Translations under genes and position numbers: made by a program | The notes under the pieces: model-generated | What the model saw: only the letters and a program-made list of their open reading frames with translations | What the model was told of the DNA's origin: nothing | Databases searched by the model: none | In this document: in pieces, positions 4,886 to 63,720 of the stretch | Numbering within the stretch: the stretch's first letter is position 1 | Layout: every line of letters starts with the position of its first letter | Source of the DNA: Heptranchias perlo | Taxonomy: Eukaryota | Assembly: GCF_035084215.1 (NCBI RefSeq) | Contig: NC_090345.1 | Span: forward strand, 21,266,001-21,330,000 | Direction of reading: 5' to 3' | Length of the DNA stretch: 64,000 nucleotides

Positions 4886-5174
4886 ATTGTCTTGTATTTT
4901 ATAAAGACAAATAATGGTGGGATAAAATAATGAAGTTAATTGCAAACGGCCTTTTTTCAGCCCAACAGAGACTGCTTTCACCAACTGGAAGAGTAAAGCT
5001 AAAGCTTGAATTACTGAAGATATTACTGATTAGATTTCATGCTATCTCTGTATAAGTAATTCTTAAATCTTGTGTATCTCAGGTGTAACTACTACACGTA
5101 ACACATCATGAAGCAGATTTGCTTTTGTGTGAACAGAGTAGTTCATTGTTTTTAATTTCACTTACATTTAATGT

Positions 5175-7082
5175 GCTACAAAAGGAAATACAAAGAGGTT
5201 AGGAAAGAAGTAAAAAAGAAAATTAGGAAAGCAAGGAGGTACTACAGAATTAAATTATCATGGAATATAAAAAGAAATAGTAAAGTGTTCTACTGGCACA
5301 TACATAACAAAAGAAAAATCAGGATAGGGATAGGGCCAATAAGAGATGCACAATTAATGACTGCGAAATGGCAGAAATATTGAATAGTTACTTTGCCTCA
5401 GTAGTCATCAGGAAGACCAACAAGGGCATGACATTAGAAGAAGAGATCAAAAAAGATATCCAGTCATTTAAGATAGAAAGGGGGAGATAATTGATAAACT
5501 AATCAAACTTGGAGAGGATAAAACCCCTGGTCCAGATGGATTGCATCTGTGCATATTAAAAGAAGTTGGGGAACAGATAGCAGAGGCAGTATTACATATA
5601 TATGAGAATTCATTGGAAAAGGGAATAGTGCCAGAGGACTGGTGGAGATCTAATGTTATTCCTATATTTAAAAAGAATTGGAGTTAGGAACAAGTCCAGG
5701 GAACTATAGATGAGTTAGCTCAATGTTGGTGGTAGGAAAGATAACGGAATCTTTACTCAAAAATGTAATAGAAAAACATCTAGAAACCGAAAATATAATA
5801 GAGTAGTCAGCACGGATTTCAGAAGGGAAAGTCATGCTGGACCAACCTTATTGAATTCTTTGAAGAAGTAACAAACAGAGTAGACAAGGGTAATATAGTA
5901 GATGTAATATATTTGGATTTTTAAACGGCCTTCGATAAGGTACTGCATTGTAGACTCATGACTAAGGTCAAAGCATATGGAGTCAGGGGACAGGTAGCAG
6001 AATAGATAGCAAGCTGGCTACAAAGCAGAAAACGGAGAGTAGGGGTTCAGGTTAGCTGCTCCGACTGGCAAAAGGTGGGAAGTGGTGTTCCACAGGGATC
6101 GGTGCTGGGATCACTGTTGTTCACAATTTACATCAACAACTTGGACTTGGGAATCGGAAGTACAATTTCAAAATTTGTGGACAACACCAAATTTGGGGGT
6201 GTAGTTAATACAAACGAGGGATGCATCAAAATACAAGAAGACATTAATAAACTTGCAGAATGAGTGTGTAATTGGCAAATGAATTTCAATATAGCTAAGT
6301 GTGAGGTGATGCATTTTGGTAGGAAGCATAAGGAGACCACATACTGCTTGGATAATAAGAGTCTAAATGGGGTAGAGGAGCAAAGGGATCTCTGGGTACA
6401 GATGCACAAATTACTCAAAGTACCAATGCAGGTTAATAAGGCCTTAAAAAAGCAAACCAAGCACTGAGGTTCATTTAGAGAGGAATAGAATTGAAAAGCA
6501 GAGAAGTTATGTTAAACTTGTATAGAACCTTGGTTAGACCACACTTGGACTACTGTGCACAATTCTAGTCTCTATATTATAAGAAGGATATAGAGGCATT
6601 GGAGAAGGTACAAATAAGATTCACAAGTATGATACCACAACTACTTCTTAGGAAAAACTGAGCAGGCTGGGGCTCTTTTCTTCACAAAAGAGAAGGCCAA
6701 GGGGAGACCTGATAGAGGTCTTTTAAGATAATGAAAGGGTTTGATAGGGTAGATGTGGAGAAAGTGTTTCCATTTGTGGGGGAATCCAAAACTAAAGGTC
6801 ATAGATATGATAGTCACTAATAAATCAAATAGGGAATTCAGGAGAAACTTCTTTACCCATAGAGTGGTAAGAAAGTGGAACACATTACCACATAGAATAG
6901 TTGAGGCAAATAGCATAGATGTATTACAAGTGAAGCCAAATAATGAGGGAGAAAGGAATAGAAGTGTATACTGATAGGATTAGATGAAAAAAGGAGGTAG
7001 GAAGCTCGTGTGGAGCATAAACACCGGCATAGACCAGTTGGGCCGAATAGCCTATTTCTGTGCTGTAGACTCGAAGTAACTC
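5175..7082 (+). mobile_element. 5'-truncated CR1 LINE (degenerate RT domain and 3' tail)
   Basis: SGVPQGSVLG, YINNLD, FVDNTK and KCEVMHFG motifs with stops and frameshifts. The 3' UTR ends ...gggccgaatagcctatttctgtgctgtagactc. Confidence 0.93.
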
Positions 7083-10000
7083 ATAGAATGGTTACAGCAC
7101 AGAAGGAGGCAATTTGGCCCACCGAGCCCGTTCTGGCTCTTTGTTAGAGCAATCCAGTTAGTTCCATTCCCCTGCTCTCTTTCCCCCTAGCCCTGCAAAT
7201 TTTTTCCCTTCAAGTATTTATCCAATTCCTTTTTGAAAACCACAATTGAATCTGCTTCCACCATCTTTCAGGCAGCGCATTCCAGGTCATAACTACTCAC
7301 TGCTAAAAACGACTTTCCTCATGTTGCCTTTGGTTCTTTTGCCATTCACCTTAAATCTGTGTCCTCTGATTCTCGACCTTTCTGCCAATGGGAGCAGTTC
7401 ATCTTTATTTCTTTATCTAAACCCTTCATGATTTTAACACTTCTATCAAATCTCCACTTAACCTTCTCTGCTCTAAGGAGAACAACCCCAGCTTCTCCAG
7501 TCTATCCATGTAACTGAAGTCCCTCATTCCTGGAACCATTCTAGTAAATCTTTTCTGCACTCTCTCTAAGGCCTTCACATCTTTCCTAAAGTGCGGTGCC
7601 CAGAATTGGACATAATACTCCAGCTTTATAAAGGTTCAACATAACTTCCTTGCTTTTATACTCTCTGCCTCTATTTATAAACCCCAGGAACCCGTATGCT
7701 TTTTTAACCACTTTCTCAACCTGTCCTGCCACCTTTAAAGATTTGTGCACATATACCCCCAGGCCTCTGTGTTCCTGCACCCCCTTTAGAATTGTACCAT
7801 TTAGTTTATATTGCCTCTCTTCATTCTTCCTGCCAAAATGTGTCACTTCGCATTTCTCTGCGTTAAATTTTATCTGCCATGTGTTAGCCCATTCCACCAG
7901 CCTGTCTATGTCCTCTTGAAGTCTGTTACTATCCTCCTCACTGTTTACTACACTTCCAAGTTTTGTGTCATCTGCAGATTTTGAAATTGTGCCCTGTACA
8001 CCCAAGTTCAAGTCCAAGTCATTAATATATATCAAAAAAAACAGTGGTCCTAGCACCGACCTCTGGGGAACACCACTGTATACCTTACTCCCGTCCAAAA
8101 AACAGCCGTTCACTGCTACTCTCTGTTTCCTGTCACTTAGCCTATTTCGTATCCATGCTGCCACTGCCTTTTATTCCGTGGCCTTCAATGTTGCTGACAA
8201 GCCTATTATGCAATTTCCACCCTTACTTCCCTTAGCAACCTAGGATTCATCCCCCCGGGTGACTTATCTACGTTAAGTACAGCCAGCCTTTTAAGTACGT
8301 CCTCTTTACAATTTTTAGCCCATCCAGTATCTCAACTACCCCCTCTTTTACTGCAGCTTTGGCAGCATCATCTTCTTTGGTAAAGACAGATGCAAAGTAC
8401 TTATTTAGTACCTCAGCCATGACTTTTGCCTCCATGCGTAGATCTTTTTGGTCCCTAATTGGCCCCACCCCTCCTCCTACTACCCGTTTACTATTTATAT
8501 GCCTACAGAACACTTTTGAATTCCCTTTTATGTTAGCTGCCAGTCTATTGTCATACACTCTCTTGGCCCCTCTTATTTCCTTTTTCACTTCTCTATACTT
8601 CCTATATTCAGCCTGGTTCTCACTTGTACACCCCCTTTTTCTGCTTCTCCTTACTCTCTATCTCTTTCATCATCCAGGGAGCTCTGGCTTTGGTTTCCCT
8701 ACTGTTCCCCCTCGTGGGAATGTACCTAGACTATACCCAAACCATCTCGTCTTTAAAGGCCGCCCATTATTGGATTACAGTTTTGCCTTCCAATCTTTGA
8801 TTCCAGTTTACCCGGGCCAGATCCATTCTCAATCCACTGAAATTGGCCCTCCTCCAATTAAGTATTTTTACTCCAGATTTCTTCTTGTCCTTTTCCATAA
8901 TTATTCTAAACCTTATGTACCATGATCACTGTTCCCTAAATGTTCCCCCACTGACACTTGCTCCACTTGACCTACTTCGTTCCCCAGAACTAGATCCAGC
9001 AATGCCTCCCTTCCTCGTTGGGCCGGAAACATACTGATCAAGAAAATTCTCGTGAAGACACTTCAGAAATTCCTCCTCCTCTTTGCCCTTTACTAGCCCA
9101 GTCTATATTAGGATGGTTGAAGTCCCCCATTATCACTACTCTATAGTTCTTGCACCTCTCTGTAATTTCCCTGCAAATTTGCTCCTCCATATCCTTCCCA
9201 CTAATTGTTGCCTATAAAATACACCCAGTAGTGTAATGGCATCTCTATTGTTTCTTAACTCTAACCAAATAGATTCTGTCTTCGACTCCCTCAAGGACAT
9301 GCCCTCTCTCCAGCACTGCAATATTCTCTTTAATCAGTACTGCCACCAACACCCCCCCTCCTTTTTCCTTCCGTATCTTTCCTGAGTACCCTGTATCTAG
9401 GAATATTTAGTACCCAATCCTGTCCTTTTTTGAGCCAGGTCTCAGTTATCGCCACTACATCGTATTCCCATGTGGCTATTTGTGCCTGCAGCTCACCATC
9501 CTTACTTACCACGCTTCATGCGTTTTACACACATGCTCTCTAAACCTACCTTAGACCTTCTCGTATTTTCTCTTAGCCTTATCCCACCTATTACTGTACT
9601 ATTTCTTACTCTAGTGCTTTTTCTGAATCCCAATCGTTTGTGTACCTTGTTTCTCCTTTCTAATGCTACATCCTGGTGCCCATCTCCCTGTCACATTAGT
9701 TTAAACCCTCCCCTACAGCATTAGTGAACCACCCCGTGAAGTGCAACCCGTCCATCTTGAACAGGTCCCTCCTGCCCCAGAATTGTCCCAATGCCCCAAG
9801 AATCTGAAGCCCTCCCTCTTGCACCATGTCTCTAGCCACGCATTAACCTGCCTTATCTTCCTATTTCTGTACTCACTAGTGTGTGGCACTGGGAGTAATC
9901 CAGAGTTTACTACCTTCTGAGGTCTTGATTTTTAACTTCCTCCCTAGCTCCTGAAACTCTGACCGCAGGACCTCATCCCTTTTCTTTCTTATGTTGTTGG

Positions 10001-34955: not shown

Positions 34956-35118
34956 AACAAAAGTTGGTGGAAAGTCCAGAATCACCCAAGGATGAGGATT
35001 CAACAGTGAAGATTGGAATGCTGAATGGAGGACACCGTATTGATTATGTTCTACAAGAAAAACCAATTGAGAGTTTCAATGAATATCTGTTTGCTCTTCA
35101 GAGCCACTTATGTTACTG
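34956..35118 (+). CDS. SEC23IP: SEC23IP exon ([55 protein letters not shown])
   Basis: ttctag acceptor and TG|GTAAGA donor; 163 nt, phase 1/2. Carries the RIDY (D) and SHLCYW (H) residues of DDHD. Confidence 0.94.
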
Positions 35119-37610: not shown

Positions 37611-37874
37611 TTAATGAAAGTGAGATGATCAGTTGGATAAGTAAATGTCATATTAAAAATCTGAAATGACAGTTTGTTAGTTACTTAAACCTGTTCTGCT
37701 ATTGGTTGCCTCACTTTCAGTCTGGTACATTTATGTAACAAATTATTATCCACAACCAAGATTCTGCTAATTAACTGGGCCCGAACACAGCCAGAAATGA
37801 CAAGTTTAATCCATATGGATAGAAAAAAACAGGACCCAGACCCCACAGTAGCAGTAAAATTACATTTTAAAATA

Positions 37875-38245
37875 TGTTCTTACTGCAGTTATACAGGGCC
37901 TTGGTGAGACCACACCTGGAGTATTGTGTGCAGTTTTGGTCTCCTTACCCAAGAAAGGATATACTTGCCATTGAGGGAGTGCAGCGAAGGTTCACCAGAC
38001 TGATTCCTGGGATGGCAGGACTGTCGTATGAGGAGAGATTGGATCGACTCGGCCTGTATTCACTCTAGTTTAGAAGAATGAGAGGGGATCTCATTGAAAC
38101 ATATAAAATTCTGACAGGGCTAGACAGACTGGATGCAGGGAGGATGTTTCCCCTGGCTTGGGGGGGGGGGTCCAGAACGAGGGGTCACAGTCTCAGGATA
38201 CGGGGTAGGACATTTAGGACTGAGATGAGGAGAAATCTCTTCACT
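37875..38245 (+). mobile_element. CR1 fragment (young subfamily, no 3' tail)
   Basis: [20 protein letters not shown]...MRGDLIETYKIL. Confidence 0.92.
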
Positions 38246-38521
38246 GCTTCTATTTTCTATGTTTCTATGTGTCACTTTTTGCATTTGGGTATTGCTAATC
38301 AAATCAGACAGTTTGGCTTTTCACATACTCATGTGCTGACAAGCGTGACTTTTAAAAAGTAAATGAGTTTCTGATCCAGGTGTTACTGCTCCATATACTG
38401 GAAGTTTGGGGAATAACATTGCTATTTTTAAAAAAGAAGAAAATCGTTTACCCAATATTTTGATTTATTTCAAATTAAATTTGTACATTTGATTTTCCCC
38501 CACAAAAGCCAGCGCATTCCA

Positions 38522-40290
38522 ACATAGAAACATAGAAAATAGGAGCAGGAGTAGGCCATTCAGCCCTTCCAGCCTGCTCCGCCATTCAATATGATCATGG
38601 CTGATCCTCTATCTCAATACCATATTCCCGCGCTCTCCCCATACCCCTTGATGCCTTTTGTGTCTAGAAATCTATCTAGCTCCTTCTTAAATATATTCAG
38701 TGACTTGGCCTTCACAGCCTTCTGTGGTAGAGAATTCCACAGGTTCACCACCCTCTGAGTGAAGAAATTTCTCCTCATCTCAGTCCTAAATGTATCCTGA
38801 GACTGTGACCCCTCGTTCAGGATCCTCCAGCCAGGGGAAACATCCTCCCTGCATCCAGTCTGTCTAGCCCTGTCAGAATTTTATATGTTTCAATGAGATC
38901 CCCTCTCATTCTTCTAAACTTGAGTGAATACAGGCCGAGTCGACCCAATCTCTCCTCATATAACAGTCCTGCCATCCCAGGAATCAGTCTGGTGAACCTT
39001 CGCTGCACTCCCTCTATGGCAAGTACATCCTTCCTTAGGTAAGGAGACCAAAACTGCACACAATACTCCACGTGTGGTCTCACCAAGGCCCTGTATAATT
39101 GCAATAAGACATCCTTGCTCCTGTACTCAAATCCTCTTGCAATGAAGGCCAACAATGGGAGAACCGTCACCACACGGACTGCAGCGGTTCAAGAAGGCGG
39201 CTCACCACCACCTTCTCAAGGGCAATTGGGGATGGGCAATAAATGCTGGCCTCGCCAGTGACGCCACGTCCCGTGAACTAATAAAAAAAAAACATACCAC
39301 TTGCTTTCCTAACTGCTTGCTGCACCTGCATGTTTGCTTTCAGTGACTGGTGTACAAGGACACCCAGGTCCCCTTGTACATCAACATTTCCCAATCTATC
39401 TCCATTTAAATAATACTCTGCCTTTCTGTTTTTCCTTCTGAAGTGGATAACTTTACATTTATCCACATTATACTGCATCTGCCATGTATTTGCCCACTCA
39501 CTCAACTTGTCTAAATCGCCTTGAAGCCGCTTTGCATCCTCCTCACAACTCACGATCCCACCTAGTTTTGTGTCATCAGCAAACTTGGAAATATTACATT
39601 TGGTTCCCTCATCCAAATCATTGATATATATTGTGAATATCTGGGGCCAAAGCACTGATCCCACTCGTCACTGCCTGCCACCCTGAAAAAGACCCATTTA
39701 TTCAGTTGTCTGTTAACCAATTTTCAATCCATGCCAGTATATTACCCCCAATCCCATGTGCTTTAATATTGCACACTAACCTCTTATGTGGGATTTTATC
39801 AAAGATCTTCTGAAAATCCAAATAAACCACATCCACTGGTTCTCCCTTATCTATTCTACCAGTTACATCCTCAAAAAACTCCAGTAGATTTGTCAAGCAT
39901 GATGTCCCTTTCATAAATCCATGTTGAATTTGTCTAATCCCATTGATATTTTCTAAGTGTCCTGTTATCACATCCTTTATAATAGACTTTAGCATTTTCC
40001 CTACCACTGATGTTAAGCTAACTGGTCTGTAGTTCCCTGTTTTCTCCCTCCCTCCTTTTTTAAATAGTGGGGTTACATTTGCCACCCTCCAATCTGCAGG
40101 AACTGTTCCATAATCTATAGAATTTTGGAAGATGACAACCAATGCATCCACTATTTCCACGGTTACCTCTTTTAGTACTCTGGGATGCAGATTTTCAGGG
40201 GATTTATCGGCTTTCAGTCCCATTAATTTCTCCAGGTCTTTTTTTTACTAATACTAATTTCCTTTAATTCCTCTTTCTCACTAGTCCACA
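38522..40290 (-). mobile_element. 5'-truncated CR1 LINE with a nested insertion
   Basis: ORFs 39702-40223, 39278-39664 and 38817-39173 are RT pieces (NYRPVSLTSVVGK, YLDFQK, FADDTKLG). Tail repeats (catagaaa)2 near 38523-38538. Confidence 0.94.
39155..39290 (+). mobile_element. Short 3' end of the second LINE family nested in CR1
   Basis: Matches the 51725-51820 tail and ends in an A-run. Flanked by aaca/aaca; removing it restores ggccaacatacca of the host CR1. Confidence 0.85.
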
Positions 40291-41841
40291 CCGAGTGTCT
40301 TCTATCACCGTCTTTAAAAACAAGCTTTTTATTTTGACAATCTCTTTTTATATTTAAAAAAAATCTAATTTACAGGTAATTAACTTCTTGCTGGAATAAG
40401 AAGTATAGGAATAGGGACTTGGTCCCAAGATAGGAGAGAATTGAAAATAGTTAAATACTTCATGCAGCTCTAGAATAAAGGGCAATGAGAGAATGATAGA
40501 TGGGGTAATTTAACTTTTCCTCATTCCTAACTTTTATGTTTTTGATTTCCTATGTTCTAGTTACCCCATAATTCTCAGGCAAATTATTTCAAGAATTAAA
40601 TTTATTTTTTAACATTTTGCCTAATTGTAGTTGCAGTAAAATGGAAGACTGGCATTTGTTAACCTGTGAGTGAAGTTTATATTGATGTAAATCAGATATT
40701 TTCAAATTATAATGTCATAGTTCCTGATTGATGACATTGAATTGGTAAAATCTTCTCTCATTCTTTTGCAGCTATGTGGAAAATGCAGAAAATTAGATTA
40801 GGTAGTGAATGTTGAATTTGATTTTTTTTTAGTCTCATGCAAGACAAGTAGAATGATAAGTAAGAGGAAACTACAAAGTAGTAATCTAATCAAGGGGTTC
40901 AGATCACCTCATGAGTCTCAGTGGCTCATGCAATTTACTTTGAGTATGCCTTCAACTCCTTATAACATGCAATATGTAATTCCCTTTCCTTTTCTCCCTC
41001 TTCCTGAACTTGTCCTCCTTCATAAGAGGCTCCTTCCATCCAACCTCTAAGTGAAACTTGAATATTACAGGAAGGATTCAGTCACAGTTTACGTTTCACC
41101 CATCCCCACCCTTCCATTGTGAATAACCTGGCTGATGCTAGCTTCTTGGGCAGCAAGTGACTGCTGAGTCTGGGATTTAAACATGGGTTTTCTGATAAGA
41201 GTCCAAACACCTAGTTCAACTTTTTTTAATGAATCTAATTTGTGGAAGTCATAAAGTCATGGTGACAAAAAATGTTTGACCTGTTACAAGACTTTGGGCC
41301 CGATTTTAGCACCCGGTCCCGGGTGCATTCTCGGCGGGGGGGCCTCTAAAATCTCGATTTCGAGGAGCGGGACCGGATCGCGCCTCGATCCCGCCCACTT
41401 CCGGGTTCCGCGCTGACGTGCGGGGGTGCGTGCGTTGGCCCCACTGGTGGGAATCCCGCAGGCAATTAAAGCCAGTGGGGTTCCACTTGAGTGTATTTAT
41501 CTAGGTATTTCAGGTCATTAAATGACCTGATTGAGCTGTTTATTTAACAGATGTGGGATTTTACAGTGAAATGAGACTGTTTCCCATACTGGGGGAAACA
41601 CTCACACTCTCAACGGACGTGTTGCAGCCAGCAGCCTGTGGCAGCTGCCAAGGTGCATTCCACAGGTGGGTGGGGGGGGGGAGAGCCTTCACCAACGCAG
41701 GAGGACACTCCGTAACATTGGGCAACGCCTGCCCTCCACCACCCTCCTCCAAGCAAGAAGATTCACCAGCGTGGAAGTGCAACCCCTGTGCGAGGACACA
41801 CTTTTCTAGCGTGCACAACCCCGCAAACCTACACCTGCCAG

Positions 41842-43053
41842 ATGGGTGCTGCGTTGACATCCTCGGAGGACGAACAGCATGACCAGCCTCGCAGTCCACG
41901 CCGTCCGCCTCAGAGACGTGCATCCCCACAACACGGTGCTGTGGCACATCCACCTGCACAGCAGGATGGAGGGCATCCGCAGAGAGAGATGCGTCGCAGG
42001 AGGCACTACCCTCGCCACAGGGTCTACAGACCGAGGCTCAGCTTCATGGACCTCTCTGAGCAGCAGTGCATACGTAGGCTCAGAGTCACTCGCCAGGTAG
42101 TCGCCGACATCTGCAGCCTCCTCAATGACGAGCTGCTCCCGGATGGACCAAGCAGCATCTTCTTACCCGTCGCCGTCAACGTCACCACTGCCCTCAACTT
42201 CTTCGCCTCCGGATCCTTCCAGGGTGCCACGGGGGACATCACCGGGGTCTGTCAGTCGTCTGCACACAAGTGCATAAGGCAAGTCACCAATGGGTTGTTC
42301 CGCAGGGCCTCGACCTACATCAACTTCGCCATGGATGAGCGCAGCCAGACGGAGAGGGCGGTTGGATTCCATGCTGTGGCTGGCTTCCCACGGGTGCAGG
42401 GTGTAATCGATTGCACCCACATAGCAATACGGGCACCTCCACATGAGCCAGGGCTGTTCATCAACAGGAAAGGGTATCACTCCATGAACGCCCAGCTCAT
42501 TTGTGACCACCGCCAGAGATTCCTACACGTGTGCGCCAGATACCCCGGCAGCTGCCACGATGCCTTCGTCCTCAGGGAGTCCACCGTCCCGCCCCTCTTC
42601 CACGCACCCAATGCCGGCAACGGCTGGCTCCTCGGCGACAAGGGATATCCCCTGCACACGTGGCTTATGACACCTCTGAGGAACCCCATTACCGAGCCGC
42701 AGCGTCGGTATAATGACAGCCACATTGCTACCAGGTCTACAATTGAGCAGGCTATAGGGCTGCTCAAGATGCGCTTCAGGTGCCTTGATCGTTCCGGGGG
42801 AGCACTCCAATACACGCCATTCAGAGTGGGACGAATTATAGTTGTCTGCTGTGCCCTGCATAACATGGCACTACAGAGAGGGGTGCCGCTGGAGGAGGCC
42901 CCATGCACACCCGCCACCCACATTGAGGACGACAATGAGGAGGAGGAGGAGGAGGAAGAGGGAGAGGAGGAGGAACGACCCATGCGCCGAACACCGGCTC
43001 ACCTGCGTGCTCGTCAGGCCAGGGAGGCACTCATATGCCAACGGTTCTCCTAA
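41842..43053 (+). CDS. Harbinger (HARBI1-like, DDE_Tnp_4) transposase, 403 aa, intact
   Basis: Uninterrupted ORF from ATG at 41842. HTH region ALNFFASGSFQ, GVIDCTHI (D), YPGSCHDA, LLGDKGYP (D) and IEQAIGLLKMRFRCL (E); acidic poly-E tail. Confidence 0.95.
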   Translation: MGAALTSSEDEQHDQPRSPRRPPQRRASPQHGAVAHPPAQQDGGHPQREMRRRRHYPRHRVYRPRLSFMDLSEQQCIRRLRVTRQVVADICSLLNDELLPDGPSSIFLPVAVNVTTALNFFASGSFQGATGDITGVCQSSAHKCIRQVTNGLFRRASTYINFAMDERSQTERAVGFHAVAGFPRVQGVIDCTHIAIRAPPHEPGLFINRKGYHSMNAQLICDHRQRFLHVCARYPGSCHDAFVLRESTVPPLFHAPNAGNGWLLGDKGYPLHTWLMTPLRNPITEPQRRYNDSHIATRSTIEQAIGLLKMRFRCLDRSGGALQYTPFRVGRIIVVCCALHNMALQRGVPLEEAPCTPATHIEDDNEEEEEEEEGEEEERPMRRTPAHLRARQAREALICQRFS

Positions 43054-43354
43054 CATCACACAGTGTGAGGCGTTCACATGTCATAACGTGCACAGACGAG
43101 GGTCCATACAGGCTCCCTCCACAGAAGAGTGGTGCCTGTACACCTGCACCCACTGTATTATGCCCAATGGGTGGGACGGGGTGGTCGTCGTCATGATGAG
43201 GCGCACGGAAGGGACATATTGCACAAGCCGCAGAATTATGGACAAGAGGTGGCTGCATTGGTGAGAAAAAGTGAGTTTATTTTGTGGTGACATTCAAACA
43301 GTGGAAATTTAAAAAAAACAAATAGACAAACACCCTAGTGCAATCCCTGTGTGC

Positions 43355-44386
43355 TCACGGAACTTTAGGCTTTCGTTTCCGGGTACCCCTACGTGGTGCT
43401 ACCCCTGTGGCTCCAGCAGAGATGGTGGCAGGTTGCTCCTGTTCGTGCCCTGACCGGCTGGATGCTTTGGGCCGACGCCCCCTGGGTTTCGGTGCCCATG
43501 AGGGCACCTCCACAGACTGCTCCTCCTGCACCTGTGCAGGGGCAGACTCGGCCACCTGGAGAGGATGGACTATTGCGGGCACTGGTTGAGAGGGGGGCAA
43601 CGGGTGAGACGTGGGGGCGCCTTGAGTAGCGTCCACACTTCCATTTCCCCGTTCACCATCTTCCCTCTCATGGCCAAGGCCCACATCACCCCTTCCACCC
43701 TGCTGGACGGCAGTTTGGATGACGTGGGTGAGACCTTGCAAGGCCACCTCCAATGTATCTGTCAACCTGTTGATGGCGGCAGAATGTTGTTCACCCTGAA
43801 TCCGAACAGCCGTTGTGAGGGCCTGGATGGACTCATTGGTGAGCTGTGCGTGATGCTCGAGGGAGGCTAGCCTGTCCTCCACCGCAGACGTTCCCACACC
43901 TACCCGTGACACTATGTCAGATATGCCTTCACGTCCCTGCGACACTATCTCGGTGATACCCTCCTGCACCTGTGCCACCATTCCCCTCATGCAGGAGTTG
44001 GAATCCTCCATCCTCCGTGCGATTGTGGAGAGTGTGCGTGGCACCTCTCCCAGTACCTCAGCAATGTTCTGGTGCCCCTCGACGGCTCTCCTTTTGACAG
44101 GTGGCCCCCTGGGTTCAGCATCTGGGTCCGGCTGAGCAAAGCCTGGAGAAGAGTGCTCCCACCGACGCGGACCCTCCGCGGCTGACCCTGCCACCAGGGT
44201 CTGCTCATGCTCACGTGTGCGCGGTGACTCACCGTGTGCAATCCCAACTAACTGAGGGGGGGGGACCCACCGAGGTGTGTGTATCTGCGCTGGTGGATGC
44301 AAGGCTCATGTGTGACGATGCACCCTCAGAGACGGCCATGTCCTCTGAGGAATCGCCCTCAACCGAGACGTCGATCGCAGACGGTC
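43355..44386 (-). pseudogene. Harbinger Myb-like protein, exon 3, with a single +1 frameshift in a C9 run (44256-44264)
   Basis: Acceptor ctgttctcttgcag. The frame GPSAIDVSVEG...VGPPP joins ORF 43355-44302 (QLVGIAHGES...RKRKPKVP*) if one C is removed. Minus-strand AATAAA at 43281-43276. Confidence 0.75.
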
Positions 44387-44502
44387 CTGCAAGAGAACAG
44401 AGGGAAATATCAGGCATGTGACCAAATGTTGCGGTGCGGCAGATGCCATGTGATGCTAAGATCATTCACGATCATGAGTGATGAGTGCCAGCTTTCCCTT
44501 AC

Positions 44503-44662
44503 CGGCCGTTTCACCAGAACCAGACTCGCCATCCGCCATCGACAGGCAATGCAGCGTGCGGCTGATCTCCAGTGCCTCGACCTCGGCGTCTGTCAGGGCC
44601 ACCTCGTGTGGCGGGCCCCCTCCGGTGCGTGCCCTATCGCGTGCGTTCCTGGCCCTCTTCTC
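44503..44662 (-). CDS. Harbinger Myb-like protein, exon 2
   Basis: Acceptor tgttttgccctcacag and donor G|GTAAGG; 160 nt. EKRARNARDRARTGGGPP contains the TGGG motif that typically follows this Myb domain. Confidence 0.88.
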
Positions 44663-44986
44663 CTGTGAGGGCAAAACACAAAAACGTTATTGAGTGATGA
44701 TTACAATGTTAGACGCTTCAAGCATTGGTGTGAGTGGGTTGAGCGTGTGCCAGATGGATGGGAGGATGCGTGTGCCACATGGCCATCCCATTGTATGGGC
44801 ATTGGGGTGTGTGGTAGTGGTCGAGTGGGGACAGGGACGGTGGGTACGTGCAGGCACTGTGAGGATGATAGTTGGGTGGCTGTGAGGATTGGTGCGGGAG
44901 CGCAGTGCTGTCAGTAGAGATGGGGTTGTGAGGTGTTTGAGGTGATGTGGAAGACGGAGTGACGCAGAGTGCGTTAGTGTACTCAC

Positions 44987-45226
44987 TTTCCTGGACCTGG
45001 TGAGGTCATTGAATCTCTTGCGGCACTGAATCCAAGTGCGGGTGGTGTTTCCCCTGCTTGTGACCTCCGCGGCCACCTCCTCCCATGCCCTCTTGCTGGC
45101 GCTGGCAGGGCACCTCCTTCCATCCGTGGGGAACAGCGTCTCCCTCCTCATGCGGACCCCGTCCAGCAGCACCTGGAGGGCGTGGTCCGTGAAACGGGGA
45201 GCAGCCTTACCCCTGTGCTCCTCCAT
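44987..45226 (-). CDS. Harbinger Myb/SANT-like (trihelix) DNA-binding protein, exon 1 (80 aa)
   Basis: MEEHRGKAAPRFTDHALQVLL...AWEEVAAEV...RTWIQCRKRFNDL is an MSANTD/NAIF1-type motif; donor AAA|GTGAGT at 44986. Confidence 0.9.
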
Positions 45227-45275
45227 CCTTGATGGAGTATAGTTTGTGGCTGGAGGGGCTTTGGTGGACTGCCCC

Positions 45276-45321
45276 TTTAAATAGAGCTCAAACATCGCTC
45301 AGACGTCAATGCGCATGCGCA
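45276..45321 (-). promoter_or_regulatory. Putative promoter of the Myb-like gene (TATA-like, CRE-like and NRF1 motifs)
   Basis: Minus-strand TATTTAAA at 45283-45276, TGACGTCT at 45308-45301 and perfect TGCGCATGCGCA at 45310-45321, 50-95 bp upstream of the ATG. Confidence 0.55.
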
Positions 45322-48300
45322 GGCTGCCGGCACGCAGCTGAGAAGCGCGGAACCCATAACTGCCGGCTAATTACATCAATCATCCCGCGATCGCGGGCGC
45401 AACGCACTCAATTTGGACAGCGCGTTTTCCTCGAGCCCGCCTGACCACCCGCTGCCAACCCGCACCCCTGGTAAAATCGGGCCCTTTGTCACCAATTTTG
45501 CATCAAGGTGAAGTTCATTCGCATGGAAAGGAGATCTCCCATGTTCATACATTTATTTAAAATGCCCAAGCCTGTTTACTATGTAGTATCCTGTCTCCTG
45601 GATTTGGTTCAAATTTCCCCATGAGCAACACTGAAAATTAGTTATATTTGACACGAATAAATACTGCATATTTACTGATGATCCAGGAATAGAAGATGAA
45701 TAGCTGTAAATAGTAATGAATTGTCCTGTATCTGTCAAAAATAATAATGCGTCTTGTTTGTTCATGGTGTCTGGGGATTACTTAACCTGAGGATAGGATG
45801 TGGGGGGAAAAGCATTGCAAATTGATGGTCATGTTGTTTGGGGTCATTGCCCTTCATGGTTAGCAGGTGGGTTTCTGTTCTGTAGCGACAGTTTGTGCTG
45901 AGTGAGCCTCTCAAGAAGGGCCCCAGCCTACTTTGTGTTTCTCCAGTTCTAGGTGGAGGTTGAACATCACTCGTTCTGATGGCCTATGTACTAAATGCAC
46001 TTCTGCAACGTTTGATGTGGGGAGGGCCGCATTTCCCCAGAAATTTTGGACCAAACAAGTTGCCTCAACCCCTTGACCTTCATTGCTCCCAGTGCAAGCA
46101 CAGTCATGCAAAGTAACATGGATGTAAGGACGTAAGCATCTTGCAATCAAAACGTACAATGATTTCATAAAATATATATAATTGAACTCAATTTTAATAA
46201 TGGGAAATGTGAAGCACGTTGGCAGCTTAACAAACAGGAGCACGTTTGTGGGAGGGGAGCCACGCTGCTGTGGGGAAATATCAAGCAGAGATCATGGGGG
46301 AGAAAAAAAAGGAAATTAAAAGTTCCCAGATTGTAGTTACAGGCAGCTTGCTCAGGGCAGCTTTAGTGGAAGCACAGGACAATCGAGAGATTTGATACTT
46401 CTATGAAAATTACAAAATGATGCAAACTGCTGAATTATTGAAATCCCACATCACATTAAATCATTGGAATTCCTCCCCTTTTTTTTCAGTCATTTGCTTT
46501 GCTTAGGATATATTGGCACAGAACTAATATAAAATGGTCTTACTGCAGTGTATTTAAATTTAGCTGCATGCGAACACGTTCAATCGATGTAAGGTTTAAT
46601 TTACTGCAAAATGTAGATTACACTACAAAGGTGCCGTCAAACTAACATAATTTATAAAAGTGGACTTTTGTGATACACCGAGTACCCTTAACCTTGATCT
46701 GTGAGCCATGGATTTGAAGCTAAAGGGATAGATAAAAATCATAATCCTACTCTGTGCAGCTGAACAGAATTGGAATTACTGAATCAATTCAATGCCTCCT
46801 CTGGGATGATGATAATCTTTCATTTGACCCTTTACATGTGACCACAACTGTGATAAAGTAAAACATGTTCAGGTTTCTAGGCGATGGAATAGGTATAGCC
46901 TGCCTACACAAAATGTATGAATCTATGCCATTACTGGAATTGTCCCAACAGATCCCTCGCTTTAAACACATTACAATCAATTTACAGAATGTTAGGAAGC
47001 AGATTCACCATGCTCATTTCCACCCCCCCGCCCCAGATAGATGCCAAGTTCCTTATCTCAGACTTGCCATCTCAGAGGTATGGAGAGAAAGAGGCATAAT
47101 GGTAGATGAGTCAATTTAGCTTGTTCTTGTGTATTTTTAGCAGGCAACTCAGGAGTGGTATTTAGATCTGATAGGAAAAATTGCCATGTAACACTTCCAA
47201 TAATTGATACCTTAGACTTAATTATGTCATAGCATAATTATGTTAACATGCAGATATCGTGTCACAGGGATCTGCAGCAGCCCTAAACTATCATGTCAGC
47301 TCACAGTTTGCATTATTATAGTTTATTGGGAGCTGTTTGCTATTCCTAGATCATTAGTTAATACAAGCCCTCATTATAATTTTATTGTTTTGAATGTAAT
47401 TCTATTTTTGCCTGGCTCCAAAATAGCAGTGTAAAAGAGAAGTAGAAAAGCTGTTTTACTGTTACAGATCTGATTGAAGAATTGCAGTGGCCATTTCTCC
47501 TGGTTATATTATCTGCTTTAAGACTTCATTAACTGAGAGAGGCTAAGGGTCAGTGTGCTAGAGCATGCAACACTACTTTAGGAGTGGTGCCAGATGGTGG
47601 CTTAAGTGTTTTATTATGATACACGGCCACGGAATCTTCAGTCGACGGATGAAGCAGGTAGACTTTTCCCACTACTGCATCTGTGGATCCAATTTGGGAG
47701 TTTCTTGACTAGCTGTCCCAAGTATTCACATGGCAGAGGTTGTGTGATCTTCTCGTTGGTTCAGATGTCATGAACCTCAACTGTCTTCAGTATTGTGGAT
47801 TAGCCATAACGTTGGAAACTGAAGTGTGTACCACTGGGTTGCTGAGTTACGCATGGAGAAACTGAGCATCACCCTAGGCGGGAGTCTAGGAGAGAATCAA
47901 TGTTACATAGATTAGCTAAAGTCCTACAATATAGCACTGCATTAAGTACAACACTACTTTTGCTTGGCTCCCAAGAATATAATTTTACCAGGGGGGCAGG
48001 GGCTGTACTGCAGTATTTACTGTAATAAATGTGAATAATTACAAATGCTGCCCTTGAAGATCTCCATTAAAGAATTTTATATTAACTTTAAAAAGATCCA
48101 GCCGGAGATAGTTTGAATGGAACCTGAAGTATTTTAAGTAACAAAACTGACCATGGGGAAATTTCTCACCTCCCCATTGAAACTTAAATTGGTGCAATAA
48201 TGTTAGTCATATAACATCTAAAAGATTCTAATGATTACTCAGAAAATTTCCAAAATGTTTGACTATATTGATTGTGAAGTTTTAATGGGTGATCGAGCCG

Positions 48301-62550: not shown

Positions 62551-62584
62551 CTCCTTTTGTGCTTAGAAAATTGTTTCCTAATGA

Positions 62585-63720
62585 CTTTGTTAAAGGAAAA
62601 TCATGTTTGACCAACCTCATTGAGTTCTTTGATGAAGCAACCATGAGGGTTGATGTGTATATGGACTTTCAAAAAGCATTTGATAAAGTTCCACATAATA
62701 GATTTGTTAGCAAAATTAAAGCCCATGGGATTAAAGGGACAGTGACTGTGTGGATACAAATTTGGCTAGGGGACAGAAAGCAGAGTGTAGTGGTGAATGA
62801 TCGTTTTTTAGACTGGAGGGAAGTGTACATTAGTGTTCCCCAGAGGTCGGTATTAGGACCACTGCTCTTTTTGATATATATCAATGACCTGGACTTGGGT
62901 ATAGAGGGTATAATTTCAAAGTTTGCAGATGACACGAAACTCGGAAATATAGTAAACAATGTGGAGGATAGTAACAGACTTCAGGAAAACATAGACAGAC
63001 TGGTGAAATGGGCAGACACATGGCAGATGAAATTTAACGCAGAGAAGTGTGAAGTGATGCATTTTGGTAGGAAGAATGAGGAGAGGCAATATAAACTTTT
63101 ACAATTTTAAAAGGGGTGCAGAAACAGGGAGCTGGGGGTGCACGTACATGAATCTTTGAAGGCGGTAGGACAAGTTGAGAAGGCTTTTTAAAAAAAAATA
63201 AACGTATGGAATCCTGGGCTTTATTAATAGAGGCATAGAGTACAAAAACAAGAGAGTTATGCTAAACCTTTATAAAACACTGGTTAGGCCTCAGCTGGAA
63301 TATTCTGGTCAATTCTGGGCACCACATTTTAGGAAGGATGTCAAGGCCTTAGAGAGGGTGCAAAAGAGATTTACTAGACTGGTGCCAGGGAGAAGGACTT
63401 CAGTTATGTGGAGTGACTGGAGAAGCTGGGGTTGTTCTCCTTAGAACAGGGAAGGTTAAGGGGAGATTTAATAGAGGTATTCAAGATCATGAACGGTTTT
63501 GATAGAGTAAATAAGAAACAACTATTACCAGTTGCAGAAGGGTCGGTCACCAGAGGACACAGATGGAAGGTGATCAGCAGAAGAGCCAGAGACGACGTGA
63601 GGAAACATTTTTTTACGCAGCTAGTTGTAATGATTTGGAATGCACTGCCTAAAAGGGTGGTGGAAGCAGATTCCATTAGTAACTTTCAAAAGAGAATTGG
63701 ATAAATACTTGAAGGGAAAT
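62585..63720 (+). mobile_element. CR1 LINE RT fragment
   Basis: KSCLTNLIEFF, YMDFQKAFDKVPH, FADDTKLG and LRGDLIEVFKIM motifs. Confidence 0.93.

Follow-up and report, generated by a model that had tools for sequence, protein, structure and literature searches.

We examined a 64,000-nucleotide stretch of the genome of the shark Heptranchias perlo (contig NC_090345.1, positions 21,266,001 to 21,330,000; hereafter the window), in which a complete two-gene Harbinger transposon lies within the host gene SEC23IP. Its features, with those of the host locus at the end, are as follows (window coordinates).

41296..45484, plus strand: full-length Harbinger element (PHIS superfamily) of 4,189 bp, with terminal inverted repeats (TIRs), target-site duplication (TSD) and two genes
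41296..41311, plus strand: left TIR, perfect over 13 bp, 16 bp with one mismatch
45469..45484, minus strand: right TIR
41288..41295, unstranded: left target arm AAGAC and left TSD TTT (41293-41295)
45485..45492, unstranded: right TSD TTT (45485-45487) and right target arm GTCAC
41842..43053, plus strand: intronless gene of a DDE transposase, 403 amino acids (aa); triad D190/D266/E302; private K113N and P58R, near-private D150N
44987..45226, minus strand: exon 1 of the Myb/SANT-like gene, DNA-binding domain; private T44S and G79R
44503..44662, minus strand: exon 2 of the Myb gene
44387..44502, minus strand: intron 2 of the Myb gene, with which one contig joint in run X4 agrees
43355..44386, minus strand: exon 3 of the Myb gene; copies with eight cytosines (C8) keep the frame to 476 aa
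44256..44264, minus strand: run of nine cytosines (C9; family state C8), a frameshift leading to a premature stop at 44231-44229
45276..45283, minus strand: TATA-like motif 5' of the Myb ATG, a sequence match only
43276..43281, minus strand: AATAAA 3' of the Myb stop, likewise a match only
34956..35118, plus strand: penultimate coding exon of SEC23IP (approximate; contig alignment 34954-35119)
53514..53595, plus strand: last coding exon of SEC23IP, up to the stop

The span 41293-45487 given in a preliminary description of this DNA is the element plus both TSDs, and the anatomy reported there, comprising both TIRs, the TTT duplication, the 403-aa DDE transposase and a convergent three-exon Myb/SANT-like gene, is confirmed by sequence. 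The TIR reads GGGCCCGATTTTA, with 13 bp perfect and 16 bp at one mismatch. The contrast between a CpG-rich element and a CpG-poor host was also borne out, the observed/expected ratio being 0.64 inside the element versus 0.24-0.26 in its flanks. The element shows the features of the Harbinger/PHIS superfamily in the broad sense, namely the DDE_Tnp_4 triad, a Myb/SANT second gene, TIRs with a 3-bp TSD, and an extended target preference; this anatomy and the cartilaginous-fish relatives described below agree with the assignment to a two-gene Harbinger in a chondrichthyan host. GCGGG occurs four to seven times per 157 bp in all six ends compared, versus seven times in the 3.6-kb interior, as GC-rich ends might show in any case. 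A subterminal match of 12 bp shared by the two element ends was discarded because it is not conserved in the young subfamily. Mapping of the white-shark SEC23IP protein yielded eight exons in the window, of which the final pair lies at about 34956-35118 and from 53514 onwards. The element lies between these two final coding exons and therefore in the last coding intron, which sharpens its earlier placement in a SEC23IP intron, and its transposase gene runs in the same direction as SEC23IP. Decayed fragments of long interspersed nuclear elements (LINEs) occur in the SEC23IP introns at window positions 5100-9300, 37800-40300, 50400-51800 and 62500-63700.

The transposase matches PF13359 (E 1e-36), and D190, D266 and E302 are the majority residues in 94, 104 and 91 of 120 homologues, respectively. 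Its predicted structure is confident (predicted local distance difference test, pLDDT, 84). Foldseek returned weak DDE-type rows alone, all with E above 0.01; no PDB sequence match and no solved structure of the superfamily were found. The Myb gene has introns with GT/AG ends, its protein matches PF13873 (E 2e-10), and a Myb protein 96% identical to that of the window copy is annotated in Heptranchias perlo. A predicted complex of transposase residues 52-350 with the helical C-terminal part of the Myb protein, run without alignments, scored 0.00. Two shark proteins (P0007 and P0008) fuse a host gene, labelled CDK2-like in one of them, to a relative of Myb exon 3, by exonisation or as an annotation artefact.

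The family inserts with a perfect 3-bp TSD (76 of 83 sampled insertions; 36 of 37 in the young set) into a palindromic 13-bp target, GASAY-NNN-RTSTC. The information lies in the 5-bp arms and hardly in the duplicated triplet, which is AT-rich but loose: TWA accounts for 4/76, CWG for 3/76, TNA for 5/76 and TTT/AAA for 13/76, and the young set has TWA in 3/36 and CWG in 1/36. The TTT duplication, first regarded as atypical, is thus typical of a family whose triplet is degenerate. A C and a G stand just outside the TSD in 62-69% of family sites. Scored with a matrix from 46 other sites, the site of the window copy ranks among the best 0.025% of all 13-mers in the window. One perfect target match in a LINE reverse-transcriptase frame (PF00078), in an element which we take to be CR1-like, is a hot site: 75 of its 3,581 exact copies, or about 2%, adjoin a family end, versus an arithmetic chance expectation of about 0.002. 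Some of these 75 may be later duplications, though several subfamilies and both orientations are present, and independent insertions at the site include L003, L006, L022, L026, L061, L063, L075, L091, L103, L116, L119, L127 and L128. Three of four fetched paralogous LINE sites were empty with a single TTT. The arm consensus is also seen in the young set and in the 68 sites that are left without the hot site. At L158 the hot site holds an end unlike the family's right end, possibly from another Harbinger family with the same target.

The window copy itself is a middle-aged, frameshifted, ordinary member of this family and lies outside its youngest burst. Its nearest relative in the sample differs by 2.1%, and it carries 28-31 private changes, versus 1-5 in the youngest copies of the same alignment, and it has lost 17 of 246 consensus CpGs, versus 0-3 of 244 in young copies; the earlier view of a young element does not survive these figures. 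Its Myb frames hold 10 private substitutions, including G79R, and the C9 run shortens the Myb protein to 185 aa, versus 476 aa in C8 copies. At transposase site 113, 93 of 120 homologues have K and two have N, and K113N occurs in 0/47 other copies. The copy had been placed one base from autonomy; this is true only as far as open frames go, since K113N and the 10 Myb substitutions come on top of the frameshift.

Our reading, to which we assign a probability of about 0.9, is that the element belongs, as a full-length copy, to a shark Harbinger family of high copy number, inserted in an earlier wave, has since decayed and is likely unable to move itself. In that wave its target in the last coding intron of SEC23IP would have been a 13-bp palindrome of the kind that the family prefers. 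By analogy with Harbinger3_DR and Ping/Pong, the Myb/SANT protein would bind the element ends and escort the DDE transposase into the nucleus; together they would excise the element and insert it with a 3-bp staggered cut. For Harbinger3_DR and Ping, Myb is described as carrying the transposase into the nucleus and both proteins as required (PMC2836001, PMC9710019); in Harbinger3_DR the two are also known to interact physically. Since insertion the copy would have accumulated some 30 private changes, and a single slippage of the C8 run would have cut Myb to 185 aa. The ends are intact, and the copy would therefore still be a substrate in trans. Judged from its sequence, it is most likely a passive remnant, mobilisable in trans, which might still supply transposase; in a nematode, the two functions are described as residing in different copies (PMC13668399).

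The family around this copy is large and graded. The terminal 18-mers occur exactly 1,586 (left) and 1,774 (right) times in the genome, and the 375 exact Myb exon-3 sites are a lower bound for the size of the long (4.2-kb) family. Within the first 130 Mb of contig C1, both ends are present in 57 elements: 20 measure about 4.2 kb, 34 measure 1.8-2.1 kb, and three, of 3.3-3.4 kb, are chimeras. L082-L115 represent a sister family of 2.05 kb without coding sequence (mean pairwise distance 5.5%), which shares the terminal 18 bp and is about 78% identical to the 4.2-kb element in its left part and about 66% in its right part. The chimeras L061, L074 and L079, at three loci, join the left 2.2 kb of the 4.2-kb family to the right 1.14 kb of the 2-kb family, and L110 has a different junction; template switching in gap repair, followed by amplification, is the likely origin. 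Among single copies, L080 has a duplicated 255-bp left end, and L019 lacks its first 12 bp, yet its CTG flanks match on both sides. An alignment of 48 full-length copies resolves into a graded set of subfamilies, with distances of up to 8% between them. Between subfamilies, window positions 41296-41595, 43096-43395 and 44296-45484 diverge by up to 15%, with synonymous differences per site (pS) above 0.2, and the transposase by 1-4% (pS 0.03). This excess in the ends, the intergenic part and the N-terminal half of Myb over the transposase suggests recombination or co-variation of ends and Myb.

The youngest subfamily numbers about 150 copies by a diagnostic allele, the older allele being present in 174. 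Of the 48 young copies sampled, 42 have two open frames and no damage to any of the four splice sites (possibly 41, as the Myb gene of L064 is broken in one alignment and open in another), and four encode both modal proteins; of 40 young loci fetched, three were excluded because the stretch did not include a left end. Reconstruction, for which the element had been put forward, is therefore unneeded. These copies speak for the view that the family still transposes in the shark germline through its youngest subfamily. Contigs of four sequencing runs, all from one sample, taken as RNA only by guess and used only for the parts they cover, add to it: they cover the element, include the C8 form, carry the young allele at 44390 in three of the four runs and, in one run, contain a joint across Myb intron 2. 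A SEC23IP exon lies in long contigs while unique intron DNA is without cover, which fits RNA. Yet in none of the four runs was Myb intron 1 joined, contigs running straight through it, the outcome expected of passive read-through; none of the joints listed for the contigs spans the intron of SEC23IP, and those covering the element cannot be assigned to the window copy. None of the 1,128 pairs among the 48 young copies, themselves a sample of about 150, is identical; they differ at a minimum of 4 and a mean of 15 positions, with about 4 singleton changes per copy. This pattern looks like an ended burst and argues against current activity, and we consider ongoing transposition unlikely. The claim of recent activity thus holds for the family in relative terms, as a recent expansion.

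The closest transposases belong to other Heptranchias families (79, 68 and 64% identity), and those of other species reach about 60% at most. In a midpoint-rooted tree of the query and 75 of 120 listed homologues (mostly shorter fragments were omitted), built without a clade test, the query groups with Heptranchias rows in a clade of seven (99/96), itself nested in a clade of 55 rows (100/99) whose named members are all cartilaginous fishes, and bony-vertebrate transposases form a separate clade. This placement fits long residence in sharks. Recent arrival by horizontal transfer, for which the element had been proposed as a candidate, would accord with the recent bursts, with the matches of the Myb C-terminal part solely to Heptranchias proteins (8/8) and with documented Harbinger transfer between fishes (PMC9179366). 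However, the transposase nests among cartilaginous-fish Harbingers, and the same genome holds graded subfamilies and older sister families, which makes such an arrival very improbable on the annotated proteins sampled. Short-branch clusters (P0023/P0025/P0046/P0068, P0010/P0013 and P0034/P0040) extend across several sharks and a ray and may represent domesticated Harbinger genes. P0108, a Callorhinchus protein, falls in the cartilaginous-fish clade although Harbingers are reported absent from Callorhinchus.

The C9 run of the window copy is the product of symmetric, age-dependent slippage accumulating after insertion. Exact whole-genome counts at the exon-3 site gave C7 in 29, C8 in 320 and C9 in 26 cases, at least 375 in total. 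The first 100 young-allele copies include one C9 and no C7, versus 16 C9 and 18 C7 among the other copies on those contigs. C8 had been taken as the functional Myb frame, and 320 of the 375 sites together with purifying selection in that frame uphold this. Between subfamily consensuses the ratio of nonsynonymous to synonymous differences per site (pN/pS) is 0.23-0.30 in Myb exon 1, 0.24-0.55 in the C8 frame of exon 3, 1.0-2.7 in the two alternative exon-3 frames and 0.27-0.31 in the transposase core, each value resting on few changes (3-33 per class); both genes thus show purifying selection. Related proteins read straight across the position, and older sister families (P0002-P0004) have no C run and read PPR. 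A first impression of C9 as the family norm (22/30 in a BLAST-picked set) was search bias, as a TIR-picked set gave 1/18 and the genome counts agree; rescue of C9 by alternative splicing was also rejected, given that no joint of that kind was seen in the contigs and that related proteins read through.

Slippage that is symmetric and builds up after insertion argues against two other accounts of the run. Homopolymer runs are error-prone in long reads, and C9 could be an assembly error that hides a window copy with both frames open. Such errors would strike young and old copies alike, whereas only 1/100 young copies departs from C8, and the C9-length runs of L019, L021, L024 and L028 bear later substitutions; we judge this account, too, highly unlikely. 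Equally hard to credit is a built-in switch in which C9 copies make a 185-aa DNA-binding repressor like the P-element KP protein, since C7 matches C9 in frequency, young copies are almost free of either as expected of neutral slippage, the older sister families lack the run and the initial excess of C9 came from the search, even if C9 arose on several branches and a stop in the last exon, with the Myb domain kept, could let the short protein escape nonsense-mediated decay.

Several points weigh against our reading of a decayed copy that is likely unable to move itself. With its frame open, its triad intact and a pLDDT of 84, the modelled protein suggests that the window copy could still supply transposase. 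K113N and the private Myb substitutions may or may not impair the proteins. The small counts behind the pN/pS ratios, and the sampling, rooting and missing clade test of the tree, count in the same direction. The age is an order-of-magnitude inference: with 7e-10 mutations per base and generation, as in the epaulette shark (PMC10587355), 4 private changes correspond to about a million generations and 30 to about ten million, the rate being that of another species, with a wide interval, and CpG-rich DNA mutating faster.

The window copy itself is of little consequence, and its young siblings are better experimental objects. We tentatively propose, with rather less than even confidence, that the youngest subfamily consists of naturally competent two-gene Harbingers whose targets form a class not covered by the published PHIS groups, with palindromic 5-bp arms being read and the triplet nearly free. 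If young copies are competent, they could serve directly as substrate for solving a first Harbinger transpososome, and as a gene-transfer tool with a sequence bias. Target specificity that resides in the arms rather than the TSD weakens a TSD-based grouping of PHIS elements.

Comparison with known systems places the family close to several of them. It recalls plant PIF/Ping/Pong with mPing (PMC2836001), which likewise combines two proteins, a 3-bp TSD within a 9-15-bp preference and non-autonomous partners; unlike the plant elements, with their TWA core, the shark family carries its information in the arms. Extended target preferences are general across the superfamily (PMC2836001), an arm-type target is already known in it, and therefore the loose triplet is the difference. 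In contrast to the narrow-sense PIF/Harbinger of Han et al. 2015, TWA makes up only 4/76 TSDs, or 3/36 in the young set. As in NuwaI and NuwaII (PMC4482050), there are two open reading frames, TIRs starting GGG or GG and a length of 4.2-4.7 kb; the NuwaI features of a 12-61-bp TIR starting GGG, two open reading frames and about 4.5 kb are all found, and the C and G flanking the NuwaII TSD recur at 62-69% of sites. The TSDs differ from those of NuwaI (CWG, 3/76 here) and of NuwaII (target C|TNA|G; TNA, 5/76 here), and cartilaginous fish are not among the hosts named in sections 7-8 of PMC4482050. Literature searches, with subscription papers, Repbase and Dfam outside their scope, found no published description of the shark family. 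Like teleost and coelacanth Harbingers (PMC9179366), it has two genes, putative transcripts and lineage-specific expansions; that paper reports none in elephant shark and suggests other cartilaginous fishes for testing, a question to which the abundance and recent expansion of Harbingers in Heptranchias speaks.

The closest counterpart is zebrafish Harbinger3_DR (Sinzelle et al. 2008, as cited in PMC2836001, PMC3016246 and PMC9710019), which is NuwaI-2_DRer (PMC4482050). Both are about 4.2 kb, with a short TIR (12 bp there, 13-16 here), a DDE_Tnp_4 transposase and a Myb_DNA-bind_5 protein, and both use a palindromic extended target: Harbinger3_DR targets AAACACCWGGTCTTT (PMC3016246), whose A-C-A-C...G-T-x-T core resembles GASAY-NNN-RTSTC. 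They differ in the TSD (CWG there, degenerate here with CWG in 3/76) and, compared by description, in the length of Myb (476 aa here versus 221) and of the transposase (403-411 here versus 343). Harbinger3_DR had to be reconstructed, whereas the shark family supplies many natural copies with both frames open. The shark family thus probably works like Harbinger3_DR yet lies outside the TSD definitions of narrow PIF/Harbinger, NuwaI and NuwaII.

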